A DNA stretch of 64,000 nt from a virus. Lineage: Duplodnaviria; Caudoviricetes. The stretch is from the IMG/VR virus record IMGVR_UViG_3300006045_001036. One strand, written 5' to 3'. This document shows, one piece after another, positions 1,011 to 54,997 of this stretch (positions are counted from its first letter, which is position 1; each line of letters begins with the position of its first letter). The translations under genes were made by a program, and so were the position numbers. Below the pieces are notes generated by a model that was not told the origin of the DNA, made no database searches, and saw nothing but the letters and a program-made list of their open reading frames with translations.

Positions 1011-1082
1011 TGGGCTATCGCCAAGCGGTAAGGCACCAGACTTTGACTCTGGCATTCTTAGGTTCAAATCCTAATAGCCCAA
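1011..1082 (+). tRNA. tRNA-Gln(TTG), probable prophage attachment site
   Basis: TGGGCTA/TAGCCCA acceptor stem, GCC-AAGCGGTAA-GGC D arm, CCAGA-CTTTGAC-TCTGG anticodon arm, TTAGG-TTCAAAT-CCTAA T arm. Confidence 0.95.
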
Positions 1083-4371: not shown

Positions 4372-5469
4372 TTACTCTACTCCATAATCACTCACTGCTT
4401 GAGACAGGGTGTCAACGTCGCCGATATGGGTGTATTTGTCGGTAACGCTCGTGGAGTGATGCCCCAGCAATGCCGCAACCATCGAAATCGGCATACCGTT
4501 CTTTTGCCATAAAGTCGCTGTTGTGTGTCTTATAGCATGAGGGGATTTGGGGTCAATCGGCTCTTCCCCGCTCTCTGTCAAGCTCTTGTTAAATCGGTCA
4601 AAGAAACATTTATACCTGCTCTCAAACCCCGATTTTGAGACGTGGTAGTTGTCACCAAGCACGTAGCAAGCGTTTTTGTCAAGCTTCTCAGACAGATATT
4701 CCGCTATCTCAGGTTTTATCGGGATATAGCGGGTCTTATTGTTTTTAGGCAAACCCAACTCGCCGTTACGCTTTACAGACCTGTCAATCGTGATAACACC
4801 CTTATTAAAGTCAATTTGCTTCGTGGTTAACGCTCTCATCTCGCCCGAGCGAATCCCTGTGTGAAACATAATATAAATCGGTATACCGAAAAGCTCGTCC
4901 GTTTTGGCAAACTCAATAATTCTTCGGACGTCGCTCTCGGCAAAAGCTTCTCTCTGAGGTTCTACTTTCTTTACCGTCATTGCTCGCTTGGCAGGGTTTC
5001 TGTCACAGAGGTCGTTGTCAATCGCACATTCAAAGGAACTCGTAAGTACAAACCGCATACGTTTATGGAATGAGTAGCTGTAATCGGCTTTGCTCCCGAG
5101 GAACTCGGTAATGTGAATCGGCTTGACCTGAGATAACTTCAAACCTCCGATTCGATGTTTCATGACGTGTTTAGCTAACCCGACGTAATCCTCGTAGGTC
5201 CCCTCCGACACGTTATTCTTCTTATAAACCGTCAGCCATAGTTCCAGCCATTCGGCTAACGTATTTTCCTGTGACGCACTTGTTGTTTTTTCACCATCCT
5301 TCACCCACTCCTTATATTTCTTGCGGCATTCTGCCTCGGTTTTGCCGTAAAAACTCTTACGCTGTCGTTTTCCGAATTCGTCAAAACCACTTTCGGTATT
5401 GAGCGTGTACTCAAATGTGCCATTCGGCAGTTTGCGAAAACTTCCGCTACCTCTCTTCTCTCTCGCCAT
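4372..5469 (-). CDS. int: Tyrosine recombinase / phage integrase
   Basis: N-terminal RGSGS arm-binding region; catalytic TGIRSGE, PK, HAIRHT, LLGH and KYTH motifs. Confidence 0.95.
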   Translation of the reverse strand: MAREKRGSGSFRKLPNGTFEYTLNTESGFDEFGKRQRKSFYGKTEAECRKKYKEWVKDGEKTTSASQENTLAEWLELWLTVYKKNNVSEGTYEDYVGLAKHVMKHRIGGLKLSQVKPIHITEFLGSKADYSYSFHKRMRFVLTSSFECAIDNDLCDRNPAKRAMTVKKVEPQREAFAESDVRRIIEFAKTDELFGIPIYIMFHTGIRSGEMRALTTKQIDFNKGVITIDRSVKRNGELGLPKNNKTRYIPIKPEIAEYLSEKLDKNACYVLGDNYHVSKSGFESRYKCFFDRFNKSLTESGEEPIDPKSPHAIRHTTATLWQKNGMPISMVAALLGHHSTSVTDKYTHIGDVDTLSQAVSDYGVE

Positions 5470-15342: not shown

Positions 15343-16315
15343 TCGCCAGAGGCTGACCCTGCAGGGACAATCCTCGCCGTAGTAAATCCAAATGGAGTTA
15401 TGTTAGTTTCTATTCCACCCGATTCAATTGATTCTTTTGTCGGGAACATCGACCGAAACATGGTTTCATATGTCACCAACGGACAATCTTCATGGATGTA
15501 CATACCGTCGGGAGAAGCGTTTTCGCCCTCTCTTATCATATTAGTCATGTACGGCATAAGTATATTGCCGAGATAGAAGCACGACTCTTCTCGAAAATCG
15601 TAAAAAGGGCAGCCTCCGCAGTACGAAGGAATGTTAGTCACCACCACTTGAACATCGTCAGGGCGGTATTCGTTGTATTTATTCATCGCCAATCTCCTGT
15701 AACAGCGTTGACAGCTCTTTAGCCAGTTCTACCGCTCGCTCTTTCTTCTCGAATAGAGCGATGCCTTCGGGAGTGTCAGTAATTAACGTATGTCGCCAAC
15801 TTGGAGAGCCGTGGTATGAAATATCTTCTGAACGATACACCCCACGAATCCCTTTTTCTGTTCGGATTGAGACATCAGAATGTCGAGAACTGCTGGTGTG
15901 TTTCTCAATTATCTTTCCTAAAACATCACGAACATCGACCTCAACGTCGAAGCCTCTAATTGTGGCTTTTGTTTGAATTTTCATGTTATACCTCTTTCGC
16001 TGTTTCTTTGAATTTCACGATATGTTCCTCTGCTTTAACAACGCTATTTTTAGCACGGAGAAGCTCTTTCTCCAGAGCATTCAATACCATTTCTTTAAAC
16101 TCTTCCCTCTCATTAGTCAGCGAATACATAACGTAGTAATCGGAAAAGCGTTGCTGTAAAACATCTAATTTGTCTTTCTTAACAATCCGATTTGTTATAC
16201 TGCCGATTTCCTCCCCTAACGCCACTTTGAACCGTGTTTGCGTTTCTTCAGCAGAAACTTCACAAATTACCAAATCATTGCAATCCGTGCTGTATGAGTG
16301 TCTAAAAAGTGTCAT
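15318..16315 (-). other. Three small hypothetical ORFs (15318-15692, 15679-15984, 15986-16315)
   Basis: Abutting or overlapping ORFs. Confidence 0.55.
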
Positions 16316-17732
16316 AACCCTTTTCTCCTTTCACAGTTTCAACGATTCCACCGAGTACGGTTAAAGCACATGGAATGACGATTGAGTTGCCCCACATCGA
16401 AAATTCCGCCGTATCTCCCCTCGGGTCTTTTAACCACGACTGGATAGCTTTTAACGTCTTCGGCTTGTGGTCGGGGTTAACGATTTTTCGGTGAGTTTCA
16501 AATATTTTCGCCCACGCTTCCAAAATTTTCTGTTGTTTAAGTAATGCTTCAGGGTGGTTTGAAAACTCTATGCCAAGCCCTTCACACCAATCGTCAGGAT
16601 ATCCCATAAGCCTACAGCATTCAAGCGGGGTTAGACGGCGGGTAGCATAATCAGATTCACCCTCGGCAAATTTTGACCGACATATCGTTCCATCAACATT
16701 TACACTTTCATAATGTTCCTCGGGATACAACTCGCTCAACCCTCTGTATCTCTCCGACGGTACGCTTTCGACAACTATTTTGTTTTCGTATAAATATTGC
16801 TTACCTATACCCTTAGCATCTCGAGTACAGAGAGTTCCGACAACGTCTGTATATGGCACGATTTCACGTTTAGGGTGAACTACTAACATTCCGCCTTGAT
16901 TGCACATTCCTCCGCACATAAGGTCGAGAGTTCGGGCGGAGTCAGCTTCGTAACACCCACTATCGGGATTTTTCGATTTCCACGAATTTGATGATTTACC
17001 AGACAAGCAATACAATTTCATTTCTTCGAGTGAATAGCCTGATGAACCAGAGCTTTCCAGAGCGGGGCGGGGATTCTCTTCCCTGCAGTAATTACTCGTT
17101 TCAAAGTTCCCAAACAAGACTTCTTGCTCGAATAATATCTTTCCGGCACTCCTACCTCGTAAATCGACAACAAGGAAGATTCTACGTCTTCTCTGGGGGA
17201 CTCCCCAATATTGTGAATTGAGCTGTCTCCACGCAAGGCTAAAGGAGTCTGCCACGATTTCTCCGCTTCGTTCCCACTTGTTAGGTCGAGGAACATGAAC
17301 TTGTTTGTCACAGCACCTGCAGAGGCTTTCCAAGACGGTACGGAAGTCTTCTCCGCCGTTACTGGCGAAAGCTCCTGGCACATTTTCCCAGACAGCGTAT
17401 CTTGGGTATTCATTATTTGTTGCTAACCTCATCTCTTCAATTATTCGGATTGCTTCAAGAAACAACCCTGACCGTGGGTCTTGAAGTCCTTCACGACGAC
17501 CTGCCAAAGAAAGCCCCTGACACGGAGAGCCGAAGGAAATTATATCGACTGGCGGTATTTTTCCGCCGTTAATTAAAGAAACATCACCTAAATGTTTCAT
17601 TTTTGGAAACCGTTTTGACGTTACTCGTACACAGAACGGCTCAATCTCCGAAGCCCAAACAGGAGCTATCCCACACAATGAACCTGCGAGCGGGAATCCA
17701 CCAGCACCATCAAACAGACTGCCGAGCGTCAC
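16302..17732 (-). CDS. DNA (cytosine-5) methyltransferase
   Basis: SLFDGAGG (I), GSPCQ (IV), WENVPG (VI), QRRRRIF (VIII), RRLTPLECCRLMGYPD (IX), WGNSI (X). Confidence 0.95.
   Translation of the reverse strand: MTLGSLFDGAGGFPLAGSLCGIAPVWASEIEPFCVRVTSKRFPKMKHLGDVSLINGGKIPPVDIISFGSPCQGLSLAGRREGLQDPRSGLFLEAIRIIEEMRLATNNEYPRYAVWENVPGAFASNGGEDFRTVLESLCRCCDKQVHVPRPNKWERSGEIVADSFSLAWRQLNSQYWGVPQRRRRIFLVVDLRGRSAGKILFEQEVLFGNFETSNYCREENPRPALESSGSSGYSLEEMKLYCLSGKSSNSWKSKNPDSGCYEADSARTLDLMCGGMCNQGGMLVVHPKREIVPYTDVVGTLCTRDAKGIGKQYLYENKIVVESVPSERYRGLSELYPEEHYESVNVDGTICRSKFAEGESDYATRRLTPLECCRLMGYPDDWCEGLGIEFSNHPEALLKQQKILEAWAKIFETHRKIVNPDHKPKTLKAIQSWLKDPRGDTAEFSMWGNSIVIPCALTVLGGIVETVKGEKGYDTF
17018..17413 (-). 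CDS. Overlapping alternative-frame ORF resembling the M.EcoHK31I beta polypeptide
   Basis: Nested in the C5 MTase in another frame; GAGG just upstream; SSLLSIYEVGVPERYYSSKKSCLGTLKR...GKRIPAPLWKAL. Confidence 0.65.
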   Translation of the reverse strand: MNTQDTLSGKMCQELSPVTAEKTSVPSWKASAGAVTNKFMFLDLTSGNEAEKSWQTPLALRGDSSIHNIGESPREDVESSLLSIYEVGVPERYYSSKKSCLGTLKRVITAGKRIPAPLWKALVHQAIHSKK

Positions 17733-25509: not shown

Positions 25510-26673
25510 CTAATTTTTACGGTTGTCCCACCAAAATGAAGTCGCCGCAGATTTGTTGTTAACGATATATGATTTTGCCACTCTGCGAATATACTCTTCG
25601 GCGTGAATTCTTCGCTCGTCCTCAGGAAGTTCGGGGGCAGAACACCATTCACCGAATATAACAGGGACTTCGAGGGTTCTTGCTCTGTCGCATACACGGT
25701 TTATATCATCGTTGATAATAGAAGCACCGTGACGAATATTACCATATTCGTCGGGGCAACTGGCAAAATCTCCTTGTTTGTCATGACACCAGTTATGCGG
25801 CGAATATATGTGTACCGAGAATATGAACTTACTTACTCCGTGATAGTGGGTTTCCTCGGGCTCAAGCGGCAACCGAAAACTATCTAATTGACGTGCATGA
25901 CCTTGAGCACCGTAAGGACATAACATCAAAAACCGATTTTTATTGTTGTCACCGCCTACCGCTCGTACTGTGTTAACAAAGATTTGATTCCACTCGTTAA
26001 CAATGATATAATCAGGAGTGCTTCCGTTCCAATCCCAATCTTTATCATCGTTGGCTGCTTCGTTCCAGAGCTTATTTCGACGTCTCGGTTCGTTAAAACC
26101 TTCAAAAATCACTCTGCAATCGTAATCATTGAACGCTTCGGCAATCTGACTCCAGATTTGATAAACAGCTATCTTTGCACTGTCGGGTGTGTCGAACCGA
26201 AACATAAACCCATCGTGGTGAGTGTTGAGTATAACATACATTCCTCGATTGTAAGCGAGGTCAACCACGCTTTTAATATACTCCATCCACTCTTTGTTTA
26301 TTTCGTGAGCCATTCCGTCTTTTCCACCGTTGGTATTTTCAACCATTTTGTACCATGTAACAGGAACACGGACAGCATTGAACCCCGCTTTGTGTACTTC
26401 ATCAATGAGATTTTCAATACTCGGTGTATCCTCATCCAACCACATATTAGCAATGCTGGGTATGTTAGGGTCTTTGCAATACGACGGAATTTTCTGGCTT
26501 GGCTTTTCACTGTTGTAAGCGTCAAGAGTATTCCCGATATTCCAGCCAACATTGATGTCTCCGACGATATCGAATGCTGTTTTATCCCAAAGCTCTTCAA
26601 GATTCGACCCAGAGCAGATTACGCCTTGTACAACACAAGCGTGTTTTGCCGACATTATAGCATTTCTACTCAC
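25510..26673 (-). CDS. Glycoside hydrolase family 5 (endoglucanase-like)
   Basis: GWNIGNTLDA, GFNAVRVPVTW, ILNTHHD, FEGFNEP (acid/base), SVHIY, IFGEW (nucleophile), FWWDN. Confidence 0.92.
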   Translation of the reverse strand: MSRNAIMSAKHACVVQGVICSGSNLEELWDKTAFDIVGDINVGWNIGNTLDAYNSEKPSQKIPSYCKDPNIPSIANMWLDEDTPSIENLIDEVHKAGFNAVRVPVTWYKMVENTNGGKDGMAHEINKEWMEYIKSVVDLAYNRGMYVILNTHHDGFMFRFDTPDSAKIAVYQIWSQIAEAFNDYDCRVIFEGFNEPRRRNKLWNEAANDDKDWDWNGSTPDYIIVNEWNQIFVNTVRAVGGDNNKNRFLMLCPYGAQGHARQLDSFRLPLEPEETHYHGVSKFIFSVHIYSPHNWCHDKQGDFASCPDEYGNIRHGASIINDDINRVCDRARTLEVPVIFGEWCSAPELPEDERRIHAEEYIRRVAKSYIVNNKSAATSFWWDNRKN

Positions 26674-28366
26674 CTTCTATCGTCACACCCTCTCCTATCG
26701 TAATTTTGCCGTATTTGTCTAATGTTTTCCCAAGCCGTGTGCGAGCAGCTCCTGCTTTCATCTCTTTTACTGAAGCAAGTGCCGCAAGGAAAAGCTCACC
26801 GCCAGCCAACCGAATATCTTCATATTCGTCCAGTTCTTTAACAGGGATGGAAATGTGGTCGGATTTATCGTCCGAATAAGCGTTGGGCAGTACAAATCGC
26901 TCCCTATTCTCAACAAGCACGAGTGTCATAGGCACTGAATCAGTATGTTGTGTATCGCTCTTTTGCTTTTCGTCACAACCCTTACACCGCCACAACTTCG
27001 TGTAGTATTCAACAGCGTCTTTGAGCCAGATTGTGTCACCGCAATGATTGCATTTGACGGTTGTTTCGTAACGTAGCTTACGACCGTCTAAAGTGGTATA
27101 ATACTGGCAAATAAGTGAGTTAGGGACAGTGGAAGCCTTTTTCACGCCGTAATCATACTCATCCAAAACCTCGATAGTCGTCTTCAGTGGGGTAACTTCC
27201 AACACCATAAATGTTGTATTTCGGCGACGAATTCTCATCCCTTTACGAATAGGCATAAATGAATTCGCTTGAGTTCCGCTAACAAGCGAGCGTTTTCTGC
27301 CTTTCGGCACTTCCTTAACGTCTTCTTTAATATCGTTTGTTGGCGGGTGTAACCGCTCTTGGTATTTCTCCGATTCGATATCTGCGTTTTGCTTACAGTA
27401 ATTATTGACTGCTTGAACAAGATTTCTGACAATTGAATCGGGGGCATCGGGATATGCGAACGGCTTGAAATGAATCTTTTGCTCGGATTCTGTTAAAACG
27501 AGCTTATTAGCTCGAAGTAAATTACCAAGCTCCATTAGCGAAAGTTCCCCCGAAGATTTGTCAGACTGCAAATCGACAAACCGATACAATCCTGTCGAGT
27601 TAAGAAGACGAACATTCTCTTGAAGGCAGTCAAAACACATACGAGAATTTCCCACTTGGCTCTTGCTGTTTGCCGAGTCTTCCACCTTTATAGCCGTACT
27701 CTTGTTCGGCATTTTAACGTGTTTATATGACGTTGATGTTAACCACTTGCCACACTGACAGCAATGAGTTTGGTGGATGATGAGGTGTTTCGCCAGAGTT
27801 TTTCCGCTGACATATCCAAATTTTGTCTTATCATCAGGATGTTCCCACGCCACGTAGAATGAGGGGAGAATGTCGTCTTTTATAATCTGAATAATTGTTC
27901 CCTCGGTCTGCCCGACTTTATTGTCAAGAGTGCGGTTAATTGTCAGGTTGTCGCCGACTTGGAATCCTCTAAGAATTGTTGCTACTTTCATTGTTTTCTC
28001 GCTTTCTTTAGGTATATAATGAGGACATTCAGTCCAGCATCGAGCGGGTTTGTTCAATCCCTGTATTCGACGCCACTCCGCCGAATCCACCGCAGCACAC
28101 GACTCTGCCAGACACTTCGAGTTCTTAGCTCCGCCCAGCCGACAACTACCGTGGTCGGGATAAAACAGGTCTAAAACACCGAACACACGTGCGGAATCGG
28201 GTTTGCAAAACGTCGGTTTGAGTTTGCTGTCGGCATAATGACGAATACTTTTAGGAATTTGTTCCCGCTTTTCGTAGATGTTGAAGCTCGGCGGACTCTG
28301 TGAACTGTCCCGCACGGTAAACACTTCCTTTTCTCCATTGGTTAAAAATCTGATATCAAGACTCAT
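26666..28366 (-). CDS. Large hypothetical protein with several CxxC motifs
   Basis: GAGGA RBS; overlaps both neighbours. Confidence 0.65.
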   Translation of the reverse strand: MSLDIRFLTNGEKEVFTVRDSSQSPPSFNIYEKREQIPKSIRHYADSKLKPTFCKPDSARVFGVLDLFYPDHGSCRLGGAKNSKCLAESCAAVDSAEWRRIQGLNKPARCWTECPHYIPKESEKTMKVATILRGFQVGDNLTINRTLDNKVGQTEGTIIQIIKDDILPSFYVAWEHPDDKTKFGYVSGKTLAKHLIIHQTHCCQCGKWLTSTSYKHVKMPNKSTAIKVEDSANSKSQVGNSRMCFDCLQENVRLLNSTGLYRFVDLQSDKSSGELSLMELGNLLRANKLVLTESEQKIHFKPFAYPDAPDSIVRNLVQAVNNYCKQNADIESEKYQERLHPPTNDIKEDVKEVPKGRKRSLVSGTQANSFMPIRKGMRIRRRNTTFMVLEVTPLKTTIEVLDEYDYGVKKASTVPNSLICQYYTTLDGRKLRYETTVKCNHCGDTIWLKDAVEYYTKLWRCKGCDEKQKSDTQHTDSVPMTLVLVENRERFVLPNAYSDDKSDHISIPVKELDEYEDIRLAGGELFLAALASVKEMKAGAARTRLGKTLDKYGKITIGEGVTIEGE

Positions 28367-28871
28367 TTTCGATTTCCTCCGAATTTTCTGGTTTTTCTTC
28401 AATTATAGGCAATACTCCTTCGATGACAACATCATCAGTAAATACCGCAGATTCTCCGCTAACGAGGTCGATTGACAGTAATTTCAATTCTTTGACTGTA
28501 ACACCGTCTCTTGCGGGTTTGCCTAATATTCGAGGGGCAAATCTGACATCAGACAAAGGAATGGTTTTAGCCAACTCTTCCCCTGCGTCGGTGTCAAGAA
28601 TATCGACTCCCGCTTTTAACTTTCCATCTTCAATACGCAATTCTGTGATTTTGTGGCTGAGTCGGTTAAGGCTGATATAATCAGGCAGTGTTGCCGTGGT
28701 CACAGGCTCTGCTTGACTTACAACATACTCTCCGAGCAAACCGTTGTCTTCGACTTGTTTTTTCAGTTCTTCCACGACTGACATAACCTCGATTTCAGGG
28801 AATATGTTGCCGTTTAGATTTGGCTTGTTGATTTCGAAAACCGTCCCGAATGCAGATTTAATAACTTTCAT
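28356..28871 (-). CDS. T4 gp21-like prohead protease homolog, possibly inactive
   Basis: NLNGNIF, LLGE, LSHKITEL, ILDTDAG; the SSRG motif reads APRI. Confidence 0.6.
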   Translation of the reverse strand: MKVIKSAFGTVFEINKPNLNGNIFPEIEVMSVVEELKKQVEDNGLLGEYVVSQAEPVTTATLPDYISLNRLSHKITELRIEDGKLKAGVDILDTDAGEELAKTIPLSDVRFAPRILGKPARDGVTVKELKLLSIDLVSGESAVFTDDVVIEGVLPIIEEKPENSEEIENES

Positions 28872-28885
28872 TTTTCCTCCAATTA

Positions 28886-28916
28886 TAAAGAATCAAGGCG
28901 GTCGAAACCACCTTGA
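28886..28916 (-). terminator. Terminator closing the RNA island
   Basis: TCAAGGTGGT-TTCG-ACCGCCTTGA followed by TTCTTT on the - strand. Confidence 0.7.
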
Positions 28917-29078
28917 CCGCTATGTACTAACCCACTGTCGTCGTCAGTACTGACGACGTCAACCCTACTCTCGTTGACAACCTTTTCACCTTGTACTTCG
29001 GTTCGATGACTGTCTTGATTTTCAAGTTGAATCCACGGTTTTAGGCATACACGCTTACTCGCCGTGGCAGGGGTTAAA

Positions 29079-29199
29079 TGGCTTAGGTGGGATTCGAACC
29101 CACGACTTTCGTGTACAGCGAGCGACCTAATCCTTTCAAGGTATACATTTATAGCTCTGTCATCTACCGCACGACCCTCTACCGCTGAGGTACACAGCC
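29079..29199 (-). ncRNA. tRNA-like RNA A with a 56-nt segment in place of the anticodon loop
   Basis: CCTC-AGCGGTA-GAGG D arm, TCGTG/CACGA stem, GTGGG-TTCGAAT-CCCAC T arm, acceptor GGCTGTG/CTAAGCC with 2 mismatches. Confidence 0.7.
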
Positions 29200-29270
29200 A
29201 TCTATGTGCGAAACAAAACCAAAGCACAGCGTCTCGCACAAAAGATTACGTACAAATTAAGAAATGCTAA

Positions 29271-29600
29271 TGGAGTCGAGGGGAATCGAACCCCTGTCCA
29301 AACCCAGTTCGGAAACATCATTTATCACCGTAGTCTGTTTATCTTTAACAGACAAAGCCGTCCCGATATTCCGAGAAGTCGGGCAACACTCATGGTGAGC
29401 GACAATTTAACAGCAGTTATTACCGCTATCACGACCCGCTCGTACCGTTAACTGACGGAATTCTTTAACCGCAAGCACTTACCTCCGTCGGTGTGCTGTT
29501 TTGGATGTTGCTGCGTTTAGGCAGCGACTAATGCTCCAACAGGAGCAAAAGCGATAATCTTAGTTTGTTTAGCGTTTAAGATTTAATTGCCAGATTGAAA
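29271..29600 (-). ncRNA. ssrA: tmRNA: tag frame, pseudoknots and 3' tRNA-like half present; 5' strand not found in its normal place
   Basis: 3' end GGAC-AGGGG-TTCGATT-CCCCT-CGACTCC-A; tag AKQTKIIAFAPVGALVAA* at 29573-29517 after TTAAAC; pk2-like AGCAC/GTGCT crossed by GACGGAG/TTCCGTC. Confidence 0.85.
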
Positions 29601-29732
29601 TGGCTTAGAATCCCCGCAATACGTACCTTTCGGGAATGGACGAGCGAAACAATACCCTTGATGGTTGCCTTCTGATATCGGCTCAAACTCAGCACAATCA
29701 CGACACTTTGGTTTGTTGTTATTTGCCATCAT
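29583..29732 (-). CDS. 49-aa Cys-rich peptide
   Basis: GAAAGGA RBS; KCRDCAEF...GYC...YC. Confidence 0.55.
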   Translation of the reverse strand: MMANNNKPKCRDCAEFEPISEGNHQGYCFARPFPKGTYCGDSKPFQSGN

Positions 29733-29742
29733 TGTAATCCTT

Positions 29743-30015
29743 TCATAAACTGCTTTTACGCTCGAAACAATGACTGCAATACACAGGCTTGTCGTCTCGG
29801 GGCTTGAACGGCACTTTAGCTTCACCGCCACATTCCGCACATATCGCTGTGAAAGTTTCTCGATTTTCAAAAGAAGCTTTCTTAGCATCACGGCAGGGTT
29901 TGCAACGTTGCGGTTGATTAGTTAGTCCTTTTTCTGCGTAGAACGCTTGTTCACCTTCAGTGAAAATAAAGTCACGTCCGCAGTCTTTACAGTTAAGGGT
30001 CTTGTCTTCGTACAT
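29743..30015 (-). CDS. Zinc-ribbon protein (zf-trcl plus CxxC-x17-CxxC)
   Basis: MYEDKTLNCKDCGRDFIFTEGEQAFYAEKG...PQRCKPCR...CAECG...VPFKP...VYCSHCF. Confidence 0.9.
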   Translation of the reverse strand: MYEDKTLNCKDCGRDFIFTEGEQAFYAEKGLTNQPQRCKPCRDAKKASFENRETFTAICAECGGEAKVPFKPRDDKPVYCSHCFERKSSL

Positions 30016-30146
30016 TTTTGGATACCTCATAATTTTTCTTAGTAGGCTCAGTAATTCATATTAAGAACCGAAGCACCGCCGAGCCATCAGCGACCTCGAT
30101 AATATTAAAGATTTTGACGGCGGATATATCGTTTCACCGACCGATA

Positions 30147-30866
30147 CTAACCTTGTAACCTTGTGTATTGGACTTTGCCGTTAATCACTTTTCTCTCCTT
30201 CGCCGAGGAAAGAATTGCTTTATCAGAATTCAAAATATCATCAAGCGTAGCGTTCTCGAAGTATGTCTTGTATCCGTTCACGCTCTCTCGAGATATAGAA
30301 AACCTCTTATTTTTCAGTCCATAACTTGAATTCAAAATCACCTTATCAATGATAACTTTGTTCCAATCAAAACCATCTGAGGAAATTCGGAAGTCTATTG
30401 TATTTCCGTATACAGCTACTTTGACAAACTGTTGTACGAGGTAATCGTACCACTTTGAGTTGATTTCGTCGAAAGATGGTAAGGTTGACGCAAGTGCTTC
30501 AAGCTCTGTCAAAGTCTGATTTAACAACAAATCCATCGACAAATCTCTCATCTTAGGAGCATATCGCCCGAGTTCGGCAAGATATTTGAATTTCGTCATT
30601 TCCACAATACCGAGTTCGGCGGAGTCTGTCTCATTTAGAAAATCTATTCCGTTGGCAACAATTATCGCTGAAGCTTCGTCATCGGTGATTCGACCTGTGT
30701 TTAATAAGAATTCTGCGTCAATTGGTGCAAGAAACTCCTTGCCTCGACCAACCCATTTTGTAGAAGGAACATGAAGATAAACAGGAGTTAGTTTGCCGTC
30801 TCTATCAAGAAGATAAGAGCCTGATAAAGTTTCTTGAACACCCGCAGCACTTCTAATCGTAATCAT
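30147..30866 (-). CDS. Hypothetical protein (MITIRSAA N-terminus)
   Basis: 239 aa; start overlaps the rpsU stop. Confidence 0.65.
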   Translation of the reverse strand: MITIRSAAGVQETLSGSYLLDRDGKLTPVYLHVPSTKWVGRGKEFLAPIDAEFLLNTGRITDDEASAIIVANGIDFLNETDSAELGIVEMTKFKYLAELGRYAPKMRDLSMDLLLNQTLTELEALASTLPSFDEINSKWYDYLVQQFVKVAVYGNTIDFRISSDGFDWNKVIIDKVILNSSYGLKNKRFSISRESVNGYKTYFENATLDDILNSDKAILSSAKERKVINGKVQYTRLQG

Positions 30867-31099
30867 CTTGAATTTCCTCTACTTTCGTACCGTGCTTGAC
30901 GTAATTTCGCAAGTTTCTCTTCCTTCAATCGTCTTTCCTCGGCACGACGAGCTTTATTTTTACGCTTGACAGAGGGTTTCTCGTAATGCTGTCTTCGTTG
31001 AAGTTCCTCGTAAAGCCCTGCCCGACGACAAGCTTGCTTGAAACGGCTAATCGCAGTTTCCAATGACTCATTTCTGCCGACACGGATTTCTATATTCAT
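30863..31099 (-). CDS. rpsU: Ribosomal protein bS21, phage-encoded
   Basis: IRVGRNESLETAISRFKQACRRAGLYEELQRRQHYEKPSVKRK; ATG 31099 chosen because the longer ORF-track start overlaps a tRNA-like gene. Confidence 0.9.
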   Translation of the reverse strand: MNIEIRVGRNESLETAISRFKQACRRAGLYEELQRRQHYEKPSVKRKNKARRAEERRLKEEKLAKLRQARYESRGNSR

Positions 31100-31193
31100 G
31101 CTTGGATACTTCGCTTTCCTTATATTAAAAAGCAACCTCACCACGTTTCTTCGCCCATTTGCGTCATCGCTCAGGCAGGTTCTGGTTGCTAAT

Positions 31194-31264
31194 CGGAGCG
31201 GGTGGGACTCGAACCCACGACTCTGTGCTGGTACACCCACTCTAACCGCCTGAGTTACCGCCCC
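31194..31264 (-). ncRNA. tRNA-like RNA B with shortened anticodon arm
   Basis: GGGGCGG/CCGCTCC acceptor, ACTC-AGGCGGTTA-GAGT D arm, GTGGG-TTCGAGT-CCCAC T arm; anticodon arm only GTGT-ACCA-GCAC. Confidence 0.75.
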
Positions 31265-31347
31265 TGAATGAGCTTCAACAGATTCGCATTTCGTCTCGAG
31301 CCTACTTTGCTATCAATCTTAGAGAGTGTCATTCTAATACTCCCTTT

Positions 31348-31451
31348 CTGCAATGGTGGGATTCGAACCCACGTGCCTCCCAGTATCGGTCTACAGCACC
31401 ACTGGTCTGCTATAGCTGTAGTCACGCTTATAGCCTCTTGCGTACATTACA
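31348..31451 (-). ncRNA. tRNA-like RNA C with expanded anticodon/variable region
   Basis: TGTAATG/CATTGCA acceptor, CGC-AAGAGGCTATAA-GCG D arm, GTGGG-TTCGAAT-CCCAC T arm; CTACAGC/GCTGTAG stem around a 17-nt loop. Confidence 0.7.
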
Positions 31452-31456
31452 GAAAA

Positions 31457-31530
31457 TCGAGACAACAGGATTCGAACCTGCGGCATCTTGCTCCCAAAGC
31501 AAGCACTCTACCAAACTGAGCTATGTCTCG
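31457..31530 (-). tRNA. tRNA-Pro(TGG)
   Basis: CGAGACA/TGTCTCG acceptor; CTTGC-TTTGGGA-GCAAG anticodon arm; canonical D and T arms. Confidence 0.95.
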
Positions 31531-31632
31531 GATGAGTAGACGCTCGGTAAACCACGGCGGAATCGGGCTTACCGAGAAACAGCCACAGTGACTCAGGCTA
31601 TCCGCAACCTGAGTTTGCGTCTTCGCCTACAA

Positions 31633-31706
31633 ATGAGGTAGCAGGATTTGAACCTACGAATACAGCAGTCAAAGTGCTGTGCCTTACCAGACTTGGCGAT
31701 ACCTCA
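31633..31706 (-). tRNA. tRNA-Gln(TTG)
   Basis: TGAGGTA/TACCTCA acceptor; CAGCA-CTTTGAC-TGCTG anticodon arm. Confidence 0.95.
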
Positions 31707-32066
31707 GTAATTGTCGGCGAAGCGGTTAGGTCACTTCTTAATGCCGACTATACCGCAATTTGCTGCTTTAGTTTTAACGAGTGGCTAAAGCTGTGTTGCG
31801 AAACAAAGAACATTCCTCGGGTATACGTTAATCAGTTTGAATTCGTTGATGGAGTATACCAGTCTGTAGTTAGAATAATCCTCACCGTCATGCCTAACTG
31901 TCAGGCAAAGCCTATTCGGGCATTAGGGGTATTGGATTTGTATAATAACTCCGAAGAGATATTACCTTGCTCCGTTATCGCAGCAGTGCGACATACGATA
32001 ACGGAGGGACAAAGCCTTATTGCATAACAACCTCTATCCGCACTCTTAACAAGGTTAACGCCGATT

Positions 32067-32333
32067 TTAAGGATGACTGCGAGTTTCTGTCGGATTACTT
32101 CCGGCACCATTCTTCTCAACCCGCACATCTTCGGGTTTTATTCCTTCGCCTATAACCTCAATACGTCCGATGTCAAACCAGTGAGAGTCCTGTATTTTGC
32201 CATCTTTGTCGAGCGATGGAGATAAACCAACCGTGTCACAGCCGTATAGGTGAGTGGCTACACCTGTAACAATTCCTGTAAAGCCTGTTATCTTGTCTTT
32301 GCCTTGTTTTCCAAGTAATTCCTTAGTATCCAT
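32067..32333 (-). CDS. Small hypothetical phage protein
   Basis: DKITGFTGIVTG...LYGC...WFD; AAAGGAG RBS. Confidence 0.7.
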   Translation of the reverse strand: MDTKELLGKQGKDKITGFTGIVTGVATHLYGCDTVGLSPSLDKDGKIQDSHWFDIGRIEVIGEGIKPEDVRVEKNGAGSNPTETRSHP

Positions 32334-32371
32334 GTTTGGGCTCCTTTCAATTCATGTAAGAATAAATGCGT

Positions 32372-32590
32372 TTATTTCGCTCTCCACGAAATACGCCCTT
32401 TAGTCAAATCATACGGCGACATCTCCACCGTAACCTTATCACCCCGAATAACCTTAATGTGGTTCATTCGAAGTCGTCCCGAGATATTACAGCGAACCTT
32501 GTGACCGTTGCCGAAAATTACGTTAAAGAATCCGCTCGGCAGTACCTCGTCAACTACACCGTCAACCTCAATTACATCGTCTTTAGCCAT
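32372..32590 (-). CDS. infA: Translation initiation factor IF-1, phage-encoded
   Basis: MAKDDVIEVDGVVDEVLP...ISGRLRMNHIKVIRGDKVTVEMSPYDLTKGRI. Confidence 0.97.
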   Translation of the reverse strand: MAKDDVIEVDGVVDEVLPSGFFNVIFGNGHKVRCNISGRLRMNHIKVIRGDKVTVEMSPYDLTKGRISWRAK

Positions 32591-33104
32591 TTAACCCTCC
32601 CCATCTTTCGCCGTCGTGCTTAAAAAGCCACTCGGCAGCTTCATTAACCCCTCGGAATTCAATAGGATATCCTTTATCGTTGGTTTCAAACACCCCTGTA
32701 TCAGGATTGCGTAGAGCATATCCATACTTGCCTAAGCTTTTCAACCGCCCACCTTTCACAGCCGATGCGGTGAGCATCGCTCTGTAAAGATTTCGTTTTG
32801 AATCCGTTTTAGAAATCACCTGAGCTTTCTTGAAATTGACGTCAGGTTTCGGGTTTGATTTCGCAGACGGTTGCGGAGAACCCTTAGACTTCGGCGGTCG
32901 GTTCAAATTCATCGACTTACGATAAGTTTTTGGCTTTTCCACAGTGTTATCAGGCAGTTCAGTGTTAGGTAACTGCCTGAATTCCATAACTTCGATGTCT
33001 TTAAATTTGTCAGGATAACGTCGCTCGTAGTCCATAGCTTTCTGGCGAGCTTCTTGATACAGCTCACTTTCGCTCTTGTATTTGTATTTCATATTCTCCA
33101 CCAA
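32583..33104 (-). CDS. Basic hypothetical protein
   Basis: ORF overlapping the infA start. Confidence 0.6.
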   Translation of the reverse strand: MVENMKYKYKSESELYQEARQKAMDYERRYPDKFKDIEVMEFRQLPNTELPDNTVEKPKTYRKSMNLNRPPKSKGSPQPSAKSNPKPDVNFKKAQVISKTDSKRNLYRAMLTASAVKGGRLKSLGKYGYALRNPDTGVFETNDKGYPIEFRGVNEAAEWLFKHDGERWGGLNG

Positions 33105-49187: not shown

Positions 49188-50627
49188 CTATTTTCTCGGT
49201 TTCTTCTTGGACACGAGTTTCATTTGATTTTCAGGTTTCTCAATAGGAACTGCTTCCGAGTTTTCAGCAACATCGTTTACTCCGAGCGGTTCTTGTAGCT
49301 CCATATCCGTATCTGTAATGGGTTTCCCTGTAATGTATTCCATCTGCTCACGAGTCAAAGCGTCTATAACACAACCGTTGTTTTCGAGTATTGACCGAGC
49401 GACCGCAGCATCCACTTGCTGAGGAACTTGTAGAATTCCCGCTATCCGAGCTTCAGGCGGTGCGTTCGGAGGTAATTGAGCTTTGAAATCATTCTTGGCA
49501 ATAAACTGAGCGGAAAGGGTTTGGAGAGTGAAAGACACGTCCATGATTTCGGCGGGGTGTCCGTCTCCCGAAGCCAAGTTCACTAACCGTCCGTCTGCCA
49601 GAATATCAATCCGCTTGTTTGTTCCATCGGCGTCCTCGATAACGTAACCGTGTACATTAGGACGAAGTTCATCGTGTTCAATACACATATCTTTAAGACC
49701 TGCGACATCAACCTCACAATCAAAATGACCTGCGTTACAACAGACTGCTCCGTGTTTCATAAGTATAAAGTGTTCGGGCGTAATAACGTCCTTGCACCCT
49801 GTTACCGTGATGAAGAAGTCACCGTACTTCGCTGCTTGGTTCATAGACATAACCGTAAAACCGTCCATCATTGCTTCAAGAGCGGGAAGGTGTTGAACCT
49901 CGGTCACAATAACTTGCATTCCGAGACCTTTAGCTCTCATAGCGACACCTTTACCGCAGTTGCCGTAACCAGCAACAACCGCCGTCTTACCCACAAGCGA
50001 TAAGTTTGTAGTCGCAGTAATCGCAGTCCACACCGACTGACCTGTTCCGTATCGGTTATCACAGAGATTTTTACACACGGCATCATTAACAGCGACCATA
50101 GGGAACATCAGTTTCTTTGCTTGTTGCAAAGCAATAAGCCGAGTTATTCCTGTGGTTGTTTCTTCGCAACCACCTTTGACATTTGCGGCGATTTCGGTAA
50201 AAGCTTCGTCATTGTGAAGAATATCGAGCAAATCCCCTCCATCGTCAATTACAATGTCGGGAGCGTGTTTTAAGACGGCTTTTAAGTCCTCGACATATTG
50301 TTCTCCAGAACAGTTGTGTGAGGCATAAACCGTCATTCCCTGAGCAACCAACGCTGCCGCAACATCATCTTGAGTTGACAAGGGGTTAGAGCCTGCAATG
50401 TACATATCCGCCCCGCCAGCTTTCAGGACTTCGCACAGTCGGGCAGTCTTGGCTTCAAGATGAATACAAAGGGCTATTTTCATCCCTTTGAACGACATAT
50501 CTTGCATTAAACCGACTTCGGTTTCTTTGAGTAAGGGCATATGCTCCCCAACCCACCGTATTTTCTTCGTCCCATCTTGGACGGCTTGAGCGTACTTCTC
50601 GTGGTCTTGACCGTAAGTGATTCTCAT
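49188..50627 (-). CDS. ahcY: Adenosylhomocysteinase (SAH hydrolase)
   Basis: HLEAKT, SNPLSTQD, DDGGD, EETTTG, DNRYGTGQS, GYGNCGKG, NAGHFD, GRLVNL, GHPAEIMD; AAGGAG RBS before ATG 50627. Confidence 0.96.
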   Translation of the reverse strand: MRITYGQDHEKYAQAVQDGTKKIRWVGEHMPLLKETEVGLMQDMSFKGMKIALCIHLEAKTARLCEVLKAGGADMYIAGSNPLSTQDDVAAALVAQGMTVYASHNCSGEQYVEDLKAVLKHAPDIVIDDGGDLLDILHNDEAFTEIAANVKGGCEETTTGITRLIALQQAKKLMFPMVAVNDAVCKNLCDNRYGTGQSVWTAITATTNLSLVGKTAVVAGYGNCGKGVAMRAKGLGMQVIVTEVQHLPALEAMMDGFTVMSMNQAAKYGDFFITVTGCKDVITPEHFILMKHGAVCCNAGHFDCEVDVAGLKDMCIEHDELRPNVHGYVIEDADGTNKRIDILADGRLVNLASGDGHPAEIMDVSFTLQTLSAQFIAKNDFKAQLPPNAPPEARIAGILQVPQQVDAAVARSILENNGCVIDALTREQMEYITGKPITDTDMELQEPLGVNDVAENSEAVPIEKPENQMKLVSKKKPRK

Positions 50628-50638
50628 TCGGATTCTCC

Positions 50639-51118
50639 TTAGTTTTGTGGTTTTATACAGACTGGTTTGATTTCTGACTGGACGGCTTTCGAAATCGCAT
50701 TGTTCTTCGGTGTACGACATTTGATATTAAACTCGGGGTGGTCTTCCCAACGCAATGATTTCTTTTCCTCCCGCTCAATACGAAAGAGTTCTTCCGCAGG
50801 TATCCACTTAACACCTCTGTCGGTGTAACCAAAGACTACAACGCCAAACACATTGTTTTCAGATGATTTCGGCGTTAATGTATCAAGCTGACAGTTTCGT
50901 TGGTGTTGGGTTAAGGCGGAAAAATCGAGGCGGTCTTTAGTCGTACACTTGACCTCGATAAGATAGACTTCACCCTTGATGACGGCGAGAAAATCACCGT
51001 CATTGACCGACCCTGCGTATCCGCTCTGCTGGTCGTGGAACCGAAATACCGTGTATCCCTTCTTTTCAAGATACTTCTTGAGATAATTCTGCATTTGAGT
51101 ACCGTGGTCTTGTTTCAT
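50639..51118 (-). CDS. RecU-like Holliday junction resolvase
   Basis: GDFL...LIEVKCTTKDRLDFSALTQHQ; located in the replication module. Confidence 0.7.
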   Translation of the reverse strand: MKQDHGTQMQNYLKKYLEKKGYTVFRFHDQQSGYAGSVNDGDFLAVIKGEVYLIEVKCTTKDRLDFSALTQHQRNCQLDTLTPKSSENNVFGVVVFGYTDRGVKWIPAEELFRIEREEKKSLRWEDHPEFNIKCRTPKNNAISKAVQSEIKPVCIKPQN

Positions 51119-52430: not shown

Positions 52431-54038
52431 ATGAAATTACCCGAAGAGTATTACCCCACGCCAACGGAGTTGGCGACAAAGATGCGAAGTAAGGTTGATA
52501 TGAAAACCGTAGCTTCCGTTCTCGAACCGTCTGCAGGTGACGGCGGTCTCATCGCAGTTTTTGCGAAATCACAGTATAATTTAGATTATTCCGCTGTTGA
52601 CGCAATCGAGATTGATGGCGACTTGCAAGCGATTCTGAAGAGTAAAGGAATTCGAGTTGTTTATAACGATTTTCTCACTTACCACTCTTACAAACAGTAT
52701 GACCTAATTGCAATGAACCCGCCGTTCTCCGAAGGAGATAAACACCTGCTTAAAGCTCTCGACATACAAAAGCACGGCGGTCAAATCGTCTGTTTACTTA
52801 ACGCTGAAACCCTACGTAACCCTTACACCAATACCCGCAAGGATTTGGTTAAGCAGTTGGAGAAATACGAAGCCGATATTGAGTATATCGAAGGAGCTTT
52901 TTCCACTGCTGACCGCTCTACCGATGTAGAAATCGCTCTTGTTTACGTCAATATCTCGAGTTCGTTTGATGATTGCGATATCTTGAAGAATTTAGAGAAA
53001 GCTCGGGAAGTCGCTTCGGAAACCGTTGAAGAAACACAACTGACAGACAGGCTTGAGAGTTATCTAAACGCTATCGTCAAACAATACGAAGCTGAAACTG
53101 CCGCAGGTGTCAGGCTAATTCGTGAGTATATGGCTTTTGCTCCACAGTGTTTGAATTCATTCGATGAGCAGTACACAAGCACTATCCTTGAGATGAAAAT
53201 TTACGATGGGAGTAGTGACCGCAGTCTTGTCAATGATTTCTTAGAGAAAGTTCGGTATAAATACTGGGCGGTGTTGTTTGGTCGTAAGGAGTTCTACGAG
53301 CTGATGACCGAGAACCAACGCAGTCAGTATTTTAAACGGTTATATGAGTTGGCTCACTACGAGTTCAACCTCTCAAACATCAAGCAAATACAGCTTGATT
53401 TGTCGAAAAGCAGTATTAAGAGTATCGAAGACACCATCCTCGACCTGTTTGACGACTTCGCCATCAAGTACACATGGTACAAGGAGTGCGACAATAACAT
53501 CCATTACTACAACGGTTGGGCGACAAACAAAGTAGGGAAAGTGAACAAGAAGGTAATTATTCGGTTGGATGCTTTCGAGCGTTACGACAAAACATTTGAA
53601 CCTCGATACACAACCAGAGGAAAAGTAACTGATATTGAGAAAGTCTTCAATTTCCTTGATTGTAACCATACTCCGCCGTTCGACAGTGTCGAAGATGTGT
53701 TAGATTACGCTACTCGGTGCGGTCAAACAGCGAAAATCGAGTTCAAGTACTTCTATATAACTTTCTACAAGAAAGGCACAGCACATATCACATTCAAAGA
53801 CATGGAGCTTATTAAACGGTTCAACATCTTTGTCGGGTTGCGAAAAAGCGGATTACCGCCGTCATACGGCAAGAAATCGTATTCCGATATGACGAATGCC
53901 GAGCAGCAAGTTGTCAACGAGTTTGACGGCGGAGAGAAAGAGTACACCAAGGTGTACAACAACCCAAGCAAGTACATTATTGAGTCCGAGAGTATGTTAA
54001 TGCTTGAGAGCAAAGAAGATTCGGGGGAGGTGTTGTAG
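52431..54038 (+). CDS. DUF4942-type N6-adenine methyltransferase
   Basis: YYPTP, VLEPSAGDG, MNPPF; C-terminal FYKKGTAHITF. Confidence 0.85.
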   Translation: MKLPEEYYPTPTELATKMRSKVDMKTVASVLEPSAGDGGLIAVFAKSQYNLDYSAVDAIEIDGDLQAILKSKGIRVVYNDFLTYHSYKQYDLIAMNPPFSEGDKHLLKALDIQKHGGQIVCLLNAETLRNPYTNTRKDLVKQLEKYEADIEYIEGAFSTADRSTDVEIALVYVNISSSFDDCDILKNLEKAREVASETVEETQLTDRLESYLNAIVKQYEAETAAGVRLIREYMAFAPQCLNSFDEQYTSTILEMKIYDGSSDRSLVNDFLEKVRYKYWAVLFGRKEFYELMTENQRSQYFKRLYELAHYEFNLSNIKQIQLDLSKSSIKSIEDTILDLFDDFAIKYTWYKECDNNIHYYNGWATNKVGKVNKKVIIRLDAFERYDKTFEPRYTTRGKVTDIEKVFNFLDCNHTPPFDSVEDVLDYATRCGQTAKIEFKYFYITFYKKGTAHITFKDMELIKRFNIFVGLRKSGLPPSYGKKSYSDMTNAEQQVVNEFDGGEKEYTKVYNNPSKYIIESESMLMLESKEDSGEVL

Positions 54039-54040
54039 TC

Positions 54041-54997
54041 ATAGCACGTAATAGAGTTGTAATCAAACAAGGGCAGGAACACCGCCGTGAATTCGTAAAT
54101 CTGTTCAAGAAATTTGACAACGGCGGACACAGTGACTGGCGAGTATGGCAGGATTTTGTTTACATGGCGTCGTCGGCACTCGCCCAACCCGCCGACTTTC
54201 GGCAAAGCCGTGAAGACGAATATATGCAGATTATCAGCAGATATAACAAAGAAGAACAAGACAGATTCCCGAAAATGTTCTTAGAGATTGTCGAAGCGTT
54301 TGAGGAAGAGAAGTTCGCTGACATACTTGGCGACCTATATATGCAGTTGGATATGGGAAGTAAGTGGAGAGGTCAATTCTTCACCCCATATAATGTTTGC
54401 GTAATGATGGCGAAAATGTCAGCAACCAATGTTCAGGAAGAAATCGACAAAAGCGGTTATATGTCTGTGTGTGACCCTTGCTGCGGAGGCGGTGCAATGT
54501 TAATAGGTTTTGCTCAACACTGCATGGAGCAGAAAGTGAATTATCACAACAACGTACTGTTTGTCGGACAAGACATCGACCCAATTGTAGCAAGAATGTG
54601 TTATATTCAGATGTCGTTACTCGGCTGTCCCGGATACGTAGTAATCGGTAATTCGCTGACTCAGCCGATTGTCGGAAACCCTCTGTTTCCCCAAACAGAC
54701 AAAGTTAATCCTGATTTGCCTGATGCCGACATCTGGTATACTCCGTTCTGGTTTACCGAAGCATGGCATTACCGCCGAGCGTTGTATCAAGTCACATCTC
54801 TGGTGCAGTCTTGTGTTTCTTCTGAAAAACAAGACGAACCTACCCCACCTGTCGTACCACCAGTTGAACCGCTTTCTCCGCCAGCCAAAGGGATTTTGTT
54901 TGACGAAGAAACCAAGAAAGCGGCATTCCAGCAGATGAATTTGTTTGAGGATTCCGAAGACCTTGACCCTAATGACATTGACGAGTTGGACGGATAA
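54041..54997 (+). CDS. N-6 DNA methylase (HsdM-like fragment family); probable ATA start at 54041
   Basis: GQFFTPY, DPCCGGG, GQDID...MCYIQ; frame open from GGAGGTG-8 nt-ATA. Confidence 0.8.
   Translation: MARNRVVIKQGQEHRREFVNLFKKFDNGGHSDWRVWQDFVYMASSALAQPADFRQSREDEYMQIISRYNKEEQDRFPKMFLEIVEAFEEEKFADILGDLYMQLDMGSKWRGQFFTPYNVCVMMAKMSATNVQEEIDKSGYMSVCDPCCGGGAMLIGFAQHCMEQKVNYHNNVLFVGQDIDPIVARMCYIQMSLLGCPGYVVIGNSLTQPIVGNPLFPQTDKVNPDLPDADIWYTPFWFTEAWHYRRALYQVTSLVQSCVSSEKQDEPTPPVVPPVEPLSPPAKGILFDEETKKAAFQQMNLFEDSEDLDPNDIDELDG

Follow-up and report, generated by a model that had tools for sequence, protein, structure and literature searches.

Are translation genes and small RNA genes that lie packed side by side in a phage genome the parts of one system, or are they the content of a phage tRNA region that changes quickly? 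This question is raised by a stretch of DNA of 64,000 nucleotides (nt), hereafter the window, from the IMG/VR virus record IMGVR_UViG_3300006045_001036 (Caudoviricetes). Between positions 28,886 and 32,590, that is within 3.7 kb, the window carries infA (encoding initiation factor IF-1), rpsU (ribosomal protein bS21), a zinc-protein gene, genes for transfer RNAs (tRNAs), part of a transfer-messenger RNA (tmRNA) gene and three tRNA-like elements, called here A, B and C. All the features of this island, from infA to a non-coding tail, are on the minus strand. An initial annotation, made from the sequence alone, proposed that the island could be a coordinated and so far undescribed module for ribosome takeover or anti-defence. 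The comparisons described below lead us to favour, with moderate confidence, another answer: the island would be a region, of a known and fast-changing kind, in which a large temperate phage carries its tRNA genes and translation accessory genes, and in which a truncated tmRNA and non-decoding tRNA-like elements are found. Pfam, ARAGORN and Rfam searches recovered infA, rpsU, the zinc-protein gene, tRNA-Gln, tRNA-Pro and the tag and 3′ half of the tmRNA at the positions first assigned to them, and the co-location of translation and RNA genes is real.

A 5′-truncated tmRNA gene

Relatives of the island were sought in IMG/VR (three flanking proteins and tmRNA patterns), twice in the JGI metagenome contigs, in GTDB genomes (tmRNA pattern), in a protein database (three proteins) and among GenBank phages (DNA). 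Across these collections, a single close relative carrying the island was found, the 7,567-bp JGI contig L013, which encodes a 238-amino-acid (aa) protein 72% identical to the 239-aa protein of the window. In L013, infA is followed by tRNA-Pro, rpsU, a Cys-rich open reading frame (ORF), the 238-aa gene, a conserved intergenic element and the zinc-protein gene; then come about 225 nt with a tRNA-like cloverleaf, a complete tmRNA gene, a large tRNA-like RNA and a homologue of the 578-aa gene of the window. The 88-aa gene, a 360-nt non-coding segment, tRNA-Gln, a 102-nt spacer, elements C and B and the 171-aa gene of the window are all absent from L013. Thus, the make-up of the island is fluid.

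The two loci also differ in the tmRNA gene. In L013, it is a standard one-piece gene (positions 2500-2922), called by ARAGORN with the tag AKSAKIIAFAPPVGALAAA and scoring 84 bits against the tmRNA model RF00023. In the window, ARAGORN called no tmRNA, and the match to RF00023 amounts to 36 bits (expectation value E 5.5e-12), below the gathering score of 47, with the acceptor pairs marked as non-pairs in the Rfam alignment. Alignment of the two loci shows that their tmRNA homology begins at AAUCUGGCAA, after the initial 63 nt of the L013 gene. These 63 nt, absent from the window, contain GGGGUCG, which is the 5′ side of the acceptor stem, together with the D-loop analogue, helix P2a and, from pseudoknot PK1, its 5′ half. 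With the 5′ strand missing from its site, no acceptor stem of 7 bp with G3:U70 was found at the locus. The place of the tmRNA 5′ part, and of the tRNA-like element upstream of it in L013, is occupied in the window by a Cys-rich ORF whose stop codon falls within the tmRNA sequence. The homologue of this ORF is located elsewhere in L013 (934-1155), between rpsU and the 238-aa gene. It can be proposed that the small Cys-rich ORF recombined into the 5′ site of the tmRNA gene, with loss of its first 63 nt. L013 and the window would then form a before-and-after pair, in which a phage tmRNA was broken by the arrival of a small ORF; the same pair also documents the turnover of tRNA-derived elements within a tRNA region.

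The junction was compared with other assemblies. A Logan contig, from a sequencing run that is possibly the one behind this DNA, covers positions 28300-31494 with zero differences; hence the junction does not depend on a particular assembler, although this agreement does not amount to independent support. A second termite-gut run contains the same strain at low depth and leaves the tmRNA junction uncovered.

Two observations on the Cys-rich ORF may be added. In L013, it is spread over two frames at a run of five A, which reflects either a frameshift or an assembly error. In the window, the tag frame of the tmRNA is in frame with the ORF upstream (29517-29732), UAA and three codons lying between them, and read-through of the ORF would append a degradation tag in cis; the odds of such an accidental arrangement are about 1 in 3.

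What remains of the window tmRNA is well preserved. Its tag frame AKQTKIIAFAPVGALVAA is intact, differing from that of L013 by substitutions and one whole-codon insertion or deletion, and ends, as expected of a tmRNA, in a hydrophobic Ala-rich degron (ALVAA) followed by a stop codon. The T arm and the P2b strand align with high posterior probability to the 3′ part of RF00023. The part shared with L013 is 81% identical (89% in the tag region, 93.5% over the last 77 nt), to be compared with 71-75% for the neighbouring genes. Moreover, 10 compensatory pairs are seen in the predicted helices, and no pair is broken. Such conservation agrees with selection having acted on the gene until recently, and the loss of the 5′ end is probably recent. 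With one relative at hand, a recent 5′ loss and continued selection for another role fit equally. With respect to standard tmRNAs, the window copy thus retains the tag frame, the pseudoknots, P2b, the T arm and a 3′ acceptor strand with U70, but differs in that the elements listed above for the first 63 nt are missing, whereas L013 has a full member of the family. Without the 5′ acceptor strand there is no alanine-accepting stem to be read by alanyl-tRNA synthetase (AlaRS), which makes trans-translation by this RNA unlikely. Most likely, the window tmRNA is no longer capable of this function.

In a rival reading, the tmRNA is functional as a split gene, with the 5′ acceptor strand and P2a supplied in trans or from downstream: from element A (position 29178), from upstream of the zinc-protein gene (30097) or from the part of the contig outside the window. 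Phages are known to carry tmRNA genes in two pieces (PMC9004378). Inside A, the sequence AGGGUCG can form six of the seven pairs with the 3′ acceptor strand CGACUCC, G3:U70 included, and is followed by UGCGGUAGAUGAC, which resembles a D-loop analogue; a permuted-tmRNA model (RF04321) run across this junction gives 25 bits (E 0.028). Nevertheless, this score is far under the gathering score of 47, and the same model gives 21 bits at the same place in L013, where a complete standard tmRNA is present. In addition, GAGGGUC corresponds to the junction between the D stem and the anticodon-type stem of the tRNA-like element and is conserved in both phages. The insert of A is not significantly similar to the true tmRNA 5′ part of L013, 876 of 2000 shuffled sequences scoring as well. 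The tag of the window also stands upstream of the T arm, which is not the order of known permuted tmRNAs (RF04321), where the T arm and 3′ acceptor come first, then an intervening segment, the 5′ acceptor, P2a and finally the tag. AGGGUCG was therefore rejected as the missing 5′ strand.

The second candidate, GAGGUCG at 30097, would imply a split with two inserted ORFs. It belongs to the intergenic element that is kept in L013 (where it reads GAUGUUG) beside a complete tmRNA, and it is paired there in a conserved helix; it was also rejected. Nowhere in the 64 kb does a 7/7 acceptor partner precede a tmRNA D-loop motif: a 7/7 acceptor match at 58749 is within a small ORF and was discarded. Finally, duplex energies do not set the candidate partners apart from background. 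A split gene hence appears unlikely, and that it would be a functional one we hold to be distinctly improbable.

tmRNA genes of other kinds were noted on other viral contigs. The IMG/VR viral contigs L002, L003, L007 and L008 contain circularly permuted tmRNA genes, each located between tRNA-Thr and tRNA-Ala, with an ARAGORN call that overlaps tRNA-Thr. Their tags resemble ...ANNIVRFSRQAAPVAA, and a 29-mer spanning the T arm and acceptor strand is identical to that of the window. Viral contig L005 (1-4300) contains 23 tRNAs and a tmRNA call within 4.3 kb; the tag of this tmRNA is an odd one of 28 residues, lacking an Ala-rich degron at its end.

tRNAs and tRNA-like elements

Two of the RNA genes of the island, tRNA-Gln and tRNA-Pro, have the 5-bp anticodon stem and 7-nt loop of decoding tRNAs, and the phage would thereby supply two decoding tRNAs, Gln-UUG and Pro-UGG. 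tRNA-Pro is the only tRNA common to the island and to L013, the two orthologues being 74% identical. CCA is encoded in no element of the island, so that these RNAs would depend on the host enzyme that adds it.

A single T-arm sequence (repeat family D1) is common to elements A, B and C. All three retain U8, A14, the GG of the D loop and a UUCGA(A/G)U T loop, and in none of them are a 5-bp anticodon stem and a 7-nt loop found together; none is called by ARAGORN. The three tRNA-like RNAs with abnormal anticodon arms described initially are not all equally secure: B is solid, A is weak alone but has a homologue in L013, and C relies on its T arm and on stems read by hand.

In B, the acceptor stem (7/7, with G3:U70), the D stem (4/4) and the T stem (5/5, with a UUCGAGU T loop) are fully paired. 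Its score against the Rfam tRNA model is well above the gathering score of 29. The anticodon site, in turn, consists of a 4-bp stem and a 4-nt loop, with 6 nt where Rfam expects 9 in the loop region. The G3:U70 pair is an established identity element of AlaRS; B could therefore, in principle, be charged with alanine. In element C, tRNA-Pro is followed immediately by an acceptor-type stem of 11 bp; a 3-bp D stem and a canonical T arm are also present, with a 7-bp stem and a 17-nt loop at the anticodon site. C is detected neither by ARAGORN nor by the Rfam tRNA model. Lacking a usable anticodon loop, both B and C are non-decoding. Both are also without counterpart in L013, and they may be viewed as lineage-specific derivatives of tRNAs with intact elbows and acceptor stems.

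Between C and B, a candidate micro-ORF of 25 codons (MTLSKIDSKVGSRRNANLLKLIQGR) is preceded by a strong Shine-Dalgarno-like motif, AAAGGGAG. Its stop codon is inside B, and it shares its frame with a longer ORF (31255-31425).

Element A is best understood from its counterpart at the same position in L013 (3000-3147). In the window, A has an acceptor stem with 5 of 7 pairs, a D stem (4/4), a T stem (5/5) and, around an insert of 56 nt, an anticodon-type stem of 5 bp; folded by itself, A does not do better than shuffled sequences (z-score 0.03). In L013, the outer acceptor stem (AAAGCAG/CUGUUUU) is fully paired (7/7) and the D arm is nearly identical to that of A. After this D arm, a stem UCUG/CAGA leads to an inner module made of a T arm, a closed hairpin and a D arm, which is enclosed by the outer acceptor stem, D arm and T arm. 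From this arrangement, the L013 element would be a nested double tRNA-like RNA; its halves score 31.9 and 28.2 bits against the Rfam tRNA model. Reading it instead as two tRNA-like RNAs in tandem leaves poor acceptor stems (3/7 and 4/7), and this option was set aside. Comparison of L013 with the window shows changes on both sides of the outer acceptor, anticodon-type and T stems, with pairing kept, which indicates that the frame of the A-type element is conserved. The window copy has lost the inner T and D arms. As judged from these alignments, A is a degraded homologue of the larger nested L013 RNA, in other words a run-down copy of it.

The inner module of the L013 element recalls YrlA, the Y RNA-like tRNA mimics of bacteria and phages (RF02553; Chen et al., 2014, PMC4201824), with which it shares the order T arm, closed acceptor-like hairpin, D arm. 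The resemblance is weak (33 bits, E 2.7e-4, against a gathering score of 69) and, unlike YrlA, the L013 module is nested in a second tRNA-like frame, while the window copy no longer has the inner T and D arms. No match to RF02553 was obtained in the window at E up to 10. Similarly, no Pfam match to TROVE/Ro60 was found in the 30 window proteins scanned, which include all ORFs of at least 400 aa, and no Ro60 gene is present on the L013 contig.

Intact tRNA bodies with a destroyed anticodon loop thus recur at this locus, which taken alone cannot show a function. They could be selected, functional, non-decoding mimics of tRNA (A, B, C and the nested L013 RNA), with the truncated tmRNA acting as an inhibitor of host trans-translation. 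Several features argue for this: the stems of B are all perfect, G3:U70 is present and the elbow nucleotides are complete, only the anticodon loop being destroyed; C has a closed 11-bp acceptor-type stem; compensatory changes preserve three stems (acceptor, anticodon-type and T) in A and its homologue of L013; and the T arm is near-identical in A, B and C. There is also a precedent, since the tmRNA of mycobacteriophage DS6A is described in PMC11915505 as reduced to its tRNA-like part (tRNA-like domain, TLD, only) and as an inhibitor of the host tmRNA. The DS6A RNA, however, keeps the tRNA-like part without the message, whereas the window RNA keeps the message and half of the tRNA-like part. 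Variants of the proposal may be imagined, in which the mimics might be decoys or sponges for host enzymes or for defences sensing the tRNA body or the 3′ end, and in which B might be an alanine-accepting mini-tRNA.

On the other side, B and C are without counterpart in the sole relative, A has two acceptor mismatches and a fold not beyond that of shuffled sequences, and no match was found in 50,697 phage records, B included. Moreover, recently duplicated pseudogenes would look intact too. On balance, we consider functional mimicry of this sort unlikely, and it seems rather unlikely that the anticodon-less RNAs represent a selected class of phage tRNA mimics accompanied by a truncated tmRNA serving as an inhibitor or sensor of host ribosome rescue. 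If this were true, the phage would possess a toolkit interfering with the tRNA-handling or rescue machinery of the host, and not one for decoding.

The favoured reading, a fast-changing tRNA region with a broken tmRNA and non-decoding elements, has to face four points that weigh against it. First, the damage in A, B and C is limited to the anticodon region, the other stems being paired, which simple decay does not predict. Second, the near-identical 3′ part of the tmRNA (93.5%), its intact tag frame and its unbroken helices could reflect selection that still acts on the truncated RNA for some other role. Third, the direction and the age of the changes rest on parsimony because there is only one relative. 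Fourth, the remaining part of the contig, about 155 kb outside the sequence searched, could hold the 5′ piece of the tmRNA.

A further element deserves mention here. Directly upstream of the complete tmRNA of L013, positions 2409-2494 form a cloverleaf (fold z -4.3) whose acceptor stem has 9 bp and whose anticodon loop, UAUUCAGU, has 8 nt and includes UCA. ARAGORN makes no call, and this RNA could be an odd suppressor-type tRNA or a non-decoding one.

Make-up of the island

The features of the island are collected in Table 1, together with two features of the left end of the window.

Table 1. Features of the island, listed from infA to the non-coding tail, and two features of the left end of the window
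Feature	Positions	Strand	Evidence or remark
infA (IF-1, 72 aa)	32372-32590	-	Pfam eIF-1a 1.1e-22; phrog_30201
88-aa phage protein	32067-32333	-	phrog_16275 (4e-25)
360-nt non-coding segment	31707-32066	-	several hairpins, including a perfect 11-bp stem
tRNA-Gln (UUG), canonical	31633-31706	-	ARAGORN; Rfam 60.2 bits
102-nt spacer	31531-31632	-	two hairpins (10 and 11 bp) inside a closing stem
tRNA-Pro (UGG), canonical	31457-31530	-	ARAGORN; Rfam 69.1 bits
tRNA-like element C	~31345-31455	-	T arm and hand-read stems
Candidate 25-codon micro-ORF	31255-31332	-	read from sequence
tRNA-like element B	31194-31264	-	Rfam tRNA 43.1 bits
Spacer before rpsU	31103-31193	-	long-range stem GCAACC/GGUUGC, then UUUUU (terminator-like); rpsU ribosome-binding region
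rpsU (bS21, 79 aa)	30863-31102	-	start ATG at 31102; Pfam Ribosomal_S21 1.7e-17; phrog_21469 'ribosomal protein S21'
239-aa conserved phage protein	30147-30866	-	34 homologues
Conserved 116-nt intergenic element	30031-30146	-	upstream of zinc-protein gene
Double treble-clef zinc protein (95 aa)	29743-30030	-	zf_Tbcl and zf_Tbcl_2; Pfam 1.9e-23 and 2.2e-18
49-aa Cys-rich ORF	29583-29732	-	translation; fills site of tmRNA 5′ part
5′-truncated tmRNA	29268-29598	-	RF00023; 3′ part of PK1, tag frame, pseudoknots, P2b, T arm, 3′ acceptor strand CGACUCC-A
tmRNA tag	29517-29573	-	translation
Hairpin directly 3′ of tmRNA	29204-29247	-	fold z -2.24 (29200-29267)
tRNA-like element A	29079-29199	-	Rfam tRNA 19.4 bits (weak alone); positional homologue at L013 3000-3147
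207-nt non-coding tail with hairpins	28872-29078	-	
Integrase	4372-5469		left end of window
Second tRNA-Gln	1011-1082		left end of window

The translation proteins are clearly assigned. IF-1 matches PF01176 over residues 7-70 of 72 with 79.9 bits (cut-off 30.2), and its gene is 75% identical to that of L013 at the nucleotide level. bS21 matches PF01165 with 63.3 bits (cut-off 27) and has 64 of 80 residues identical to the L013 copy. Phage IF-1 and bS21 would probably enter host 30S subunits and bias initiation towards phage messages. IF-1, bS21 and tmRNA occur in large phages, as the initial annotation stated and as the literature bears out, and in huge phages they were proposed to redirect host translation (Al-Shayeb et al., 2020, PMC7162821); ribosomal proteins in viruses were reported by Mizuno et al. 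(2019), as cited in PMC7162821. The window resembles the huge and T4-like phages in having phage-borne IF-1, bS21, tRNAs and tmRNA, but it differs from them in that the set is held within 3.7 kb of a temperate termite-gut phage and includes a 5′-truncated tmRNA. Moreover, unlike in the huge-phage comparison, its bS21 has no N-terminal extension and starts at an ATG shared with L013.

The start of the 239-aa gene overlaps the stop codon of rpsU (ATGA). Its product has no Pfam or PHROG match; for its AlphaFold model (pLDDT 85), Foldseek returned nothing at E up to 0.001, and the top VIA-align hit (Z 5.4) is within noise. The zinc-protein gene has an orthologue at the equivalent position in L013; similarity to the GenBank record MT837064 is limited to this gene and is uninformative.

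Since the genes are co-oriented with short gaps, they are probably co-transcribed, giving long transcripts. RNase P and RNase Z cut at tRNA-shaped structures, and the presence of such structures at gene boundaries on one strand makes cutting by host tRNA-processing enzymes plausible. These enzymes would excise the tRNAs and the tRNA-shaped elements, and the same cuts would separate the flanking mRNAs. A comparable organisation is known from the T4 tRNA region, which holds the small stable RNAs RNAC and RNAD, of unknown roles (PMC3014915). In both cases a tRNA cluster of a phage with a T4-type capsid contains extra small RNAs, presumably cut from a common precursor; unlike RNAC and RNAD, the extra RNAs of the window are recognisably tRNA-derived and are known here from sequence alone.

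Folding of the non-coding segments was compared with that of shuffled sequences. The statement that almost every intergenic stretch of the island can fold does not hold, as only some segments do better than their shuffles. The 102-nt spacer is the most stable (minimum free energy -44.1 kcal/mol, z -5.18, with 0 of 200 shuffles as stable). For reference, the 1% tail of a rough background scan of 30 kb, with 15 shuffles per fold window, is near z -4.4. The 360-nt segment reaches z -3.13 (minus strand) and -2.22 (plus strand), the first part of the tail (28872-28990) z -3.33 and the region of C (31340-31456) z -2.52. A terminator-like 12-bp hairpin is present in the tail at 28891-28918. Five segments, with z from +0.4 to -1.2, are not beyond shuffles: 31265-31347, the spacer before rpsU (z -1.2), the 116-nt intergenic element (z -0.16), element A and the second part of the tail (28950-29078, z -0.07).

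Conservation distributes differently. The 116-nt element upstream of the zinc-protein gene, unexceptional when folded as a single sequence, is the sole intergenic element conserved with L013, at 84% identity versus 71-75% for the neighbouring genes. RNAalifold predicts 20 pairs, with 6 one-sided changes that keep pairing and none broken, and a 13-nt loop is invariant. This element may be the leader of the zinc-protein gene. As for the best-folding segments, the 102-nt spacer and the 360-nt segment, they have no homologue in any fetched locus, and covariation therefore cannot be assessed for them.

Matches to known RNA families are few. At gathering scores, Rfam finds only tRNAs in the whole window, B included; GOLLD, ROOL and riboswitches are not among its matches. 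With E relaxed to 10 over positions 28500-33000, the tmRNA is added at 36 bits and nothing else of substance appears, GOLLD and ROOL again being absent. The known families of the island, from Rfam and ARAGORN, are therefore tRNA (Gln, Pro and B) and a sub-threshold tmRNA; no segment matches a family other than these two.

These data bear on the idea that the island is a single coordinated and undescribed system for ribosome takeover or anti-defence, with large ornate RNAs. The tight clustering of translation and RNA genes on one strand speaks in its favour, and so do the folds of the 102-nt and 360-nt segments. However, the set is not kept together in L013, where infA, tRNA-Pro and rpsU follow one another directly. 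No GOLLD, ROOL or other Rfam family was matched, the tmRNA is broken and A is degraded. Furthermore, homologues of two of the proteins occur in other phages without nearby RNA genes: none of the 18 IMG/VR relatives of the 88-aa gene (L017-L034) has an adjacent tRNA, and RNA genes are absent beside the 239-aa gene in L001 and in the more distant phages L014-L016. There is thus no support for a single coordinated system, which we judge very improbable; a phage tRNA region in rapid turnover accounts better for this make-up.

Phage context

The surrounding contig (ENA ERZ27257320; 219,530 bp) comes from a termite-gut metagenome. The stretch is present in two termite-gut metagenome DNA runs, from two studies, and in JGI sample 3300002505; no RNA run is listed among the sequencing runs that hold it. 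To the right of the window are found members of the T4 Gp23 (major capsid) and T4 gp13 families, a sigma-70-type factor, a dCMP deaminase and a thymidylate kinase. The window itself encodes an endolysin, DNA methyltransferases, tail-fibre-like proteins, a DnaB-like helicase, an SNF2 helicase and an S-adenosylhomocysteine hydrolase.

The label of prophage given initially is reasonable: an integrase gene and a second tRNA-Gln gene are located at the left end of the window, beyond which are found a MalT-like regulator, a HipA-like gene and a transposase. The left junction is also carried by JGI contig L037. The region looks like an integrated phage with a T4-type capsid, and a temperate phage with such a capsid would be unusual. 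A temperate termite-gut phage of the T4-capsid type thus joins the phages that carry IF-1, bS21, tRNAs and tmRNA.

Some minor observations concern the phage and its host. A hint of a type IX secretion system (T9SS) at the left flank was withdrawn, its source ORF being probably antisense to the MalT-like gene. The S-adenosylhomocysteine hydrolase (49188-50720) is phage-encoded and accompanies several DNA methyltransferase genes (16302-17732, 52431-54997). Genes of the glycoside hydrolase family 5 (GH5) cellulase family follow the island in both phages (25510-26673 in the window, 4697-6842 in L013), which fits a cellulolytic termite-gut host.

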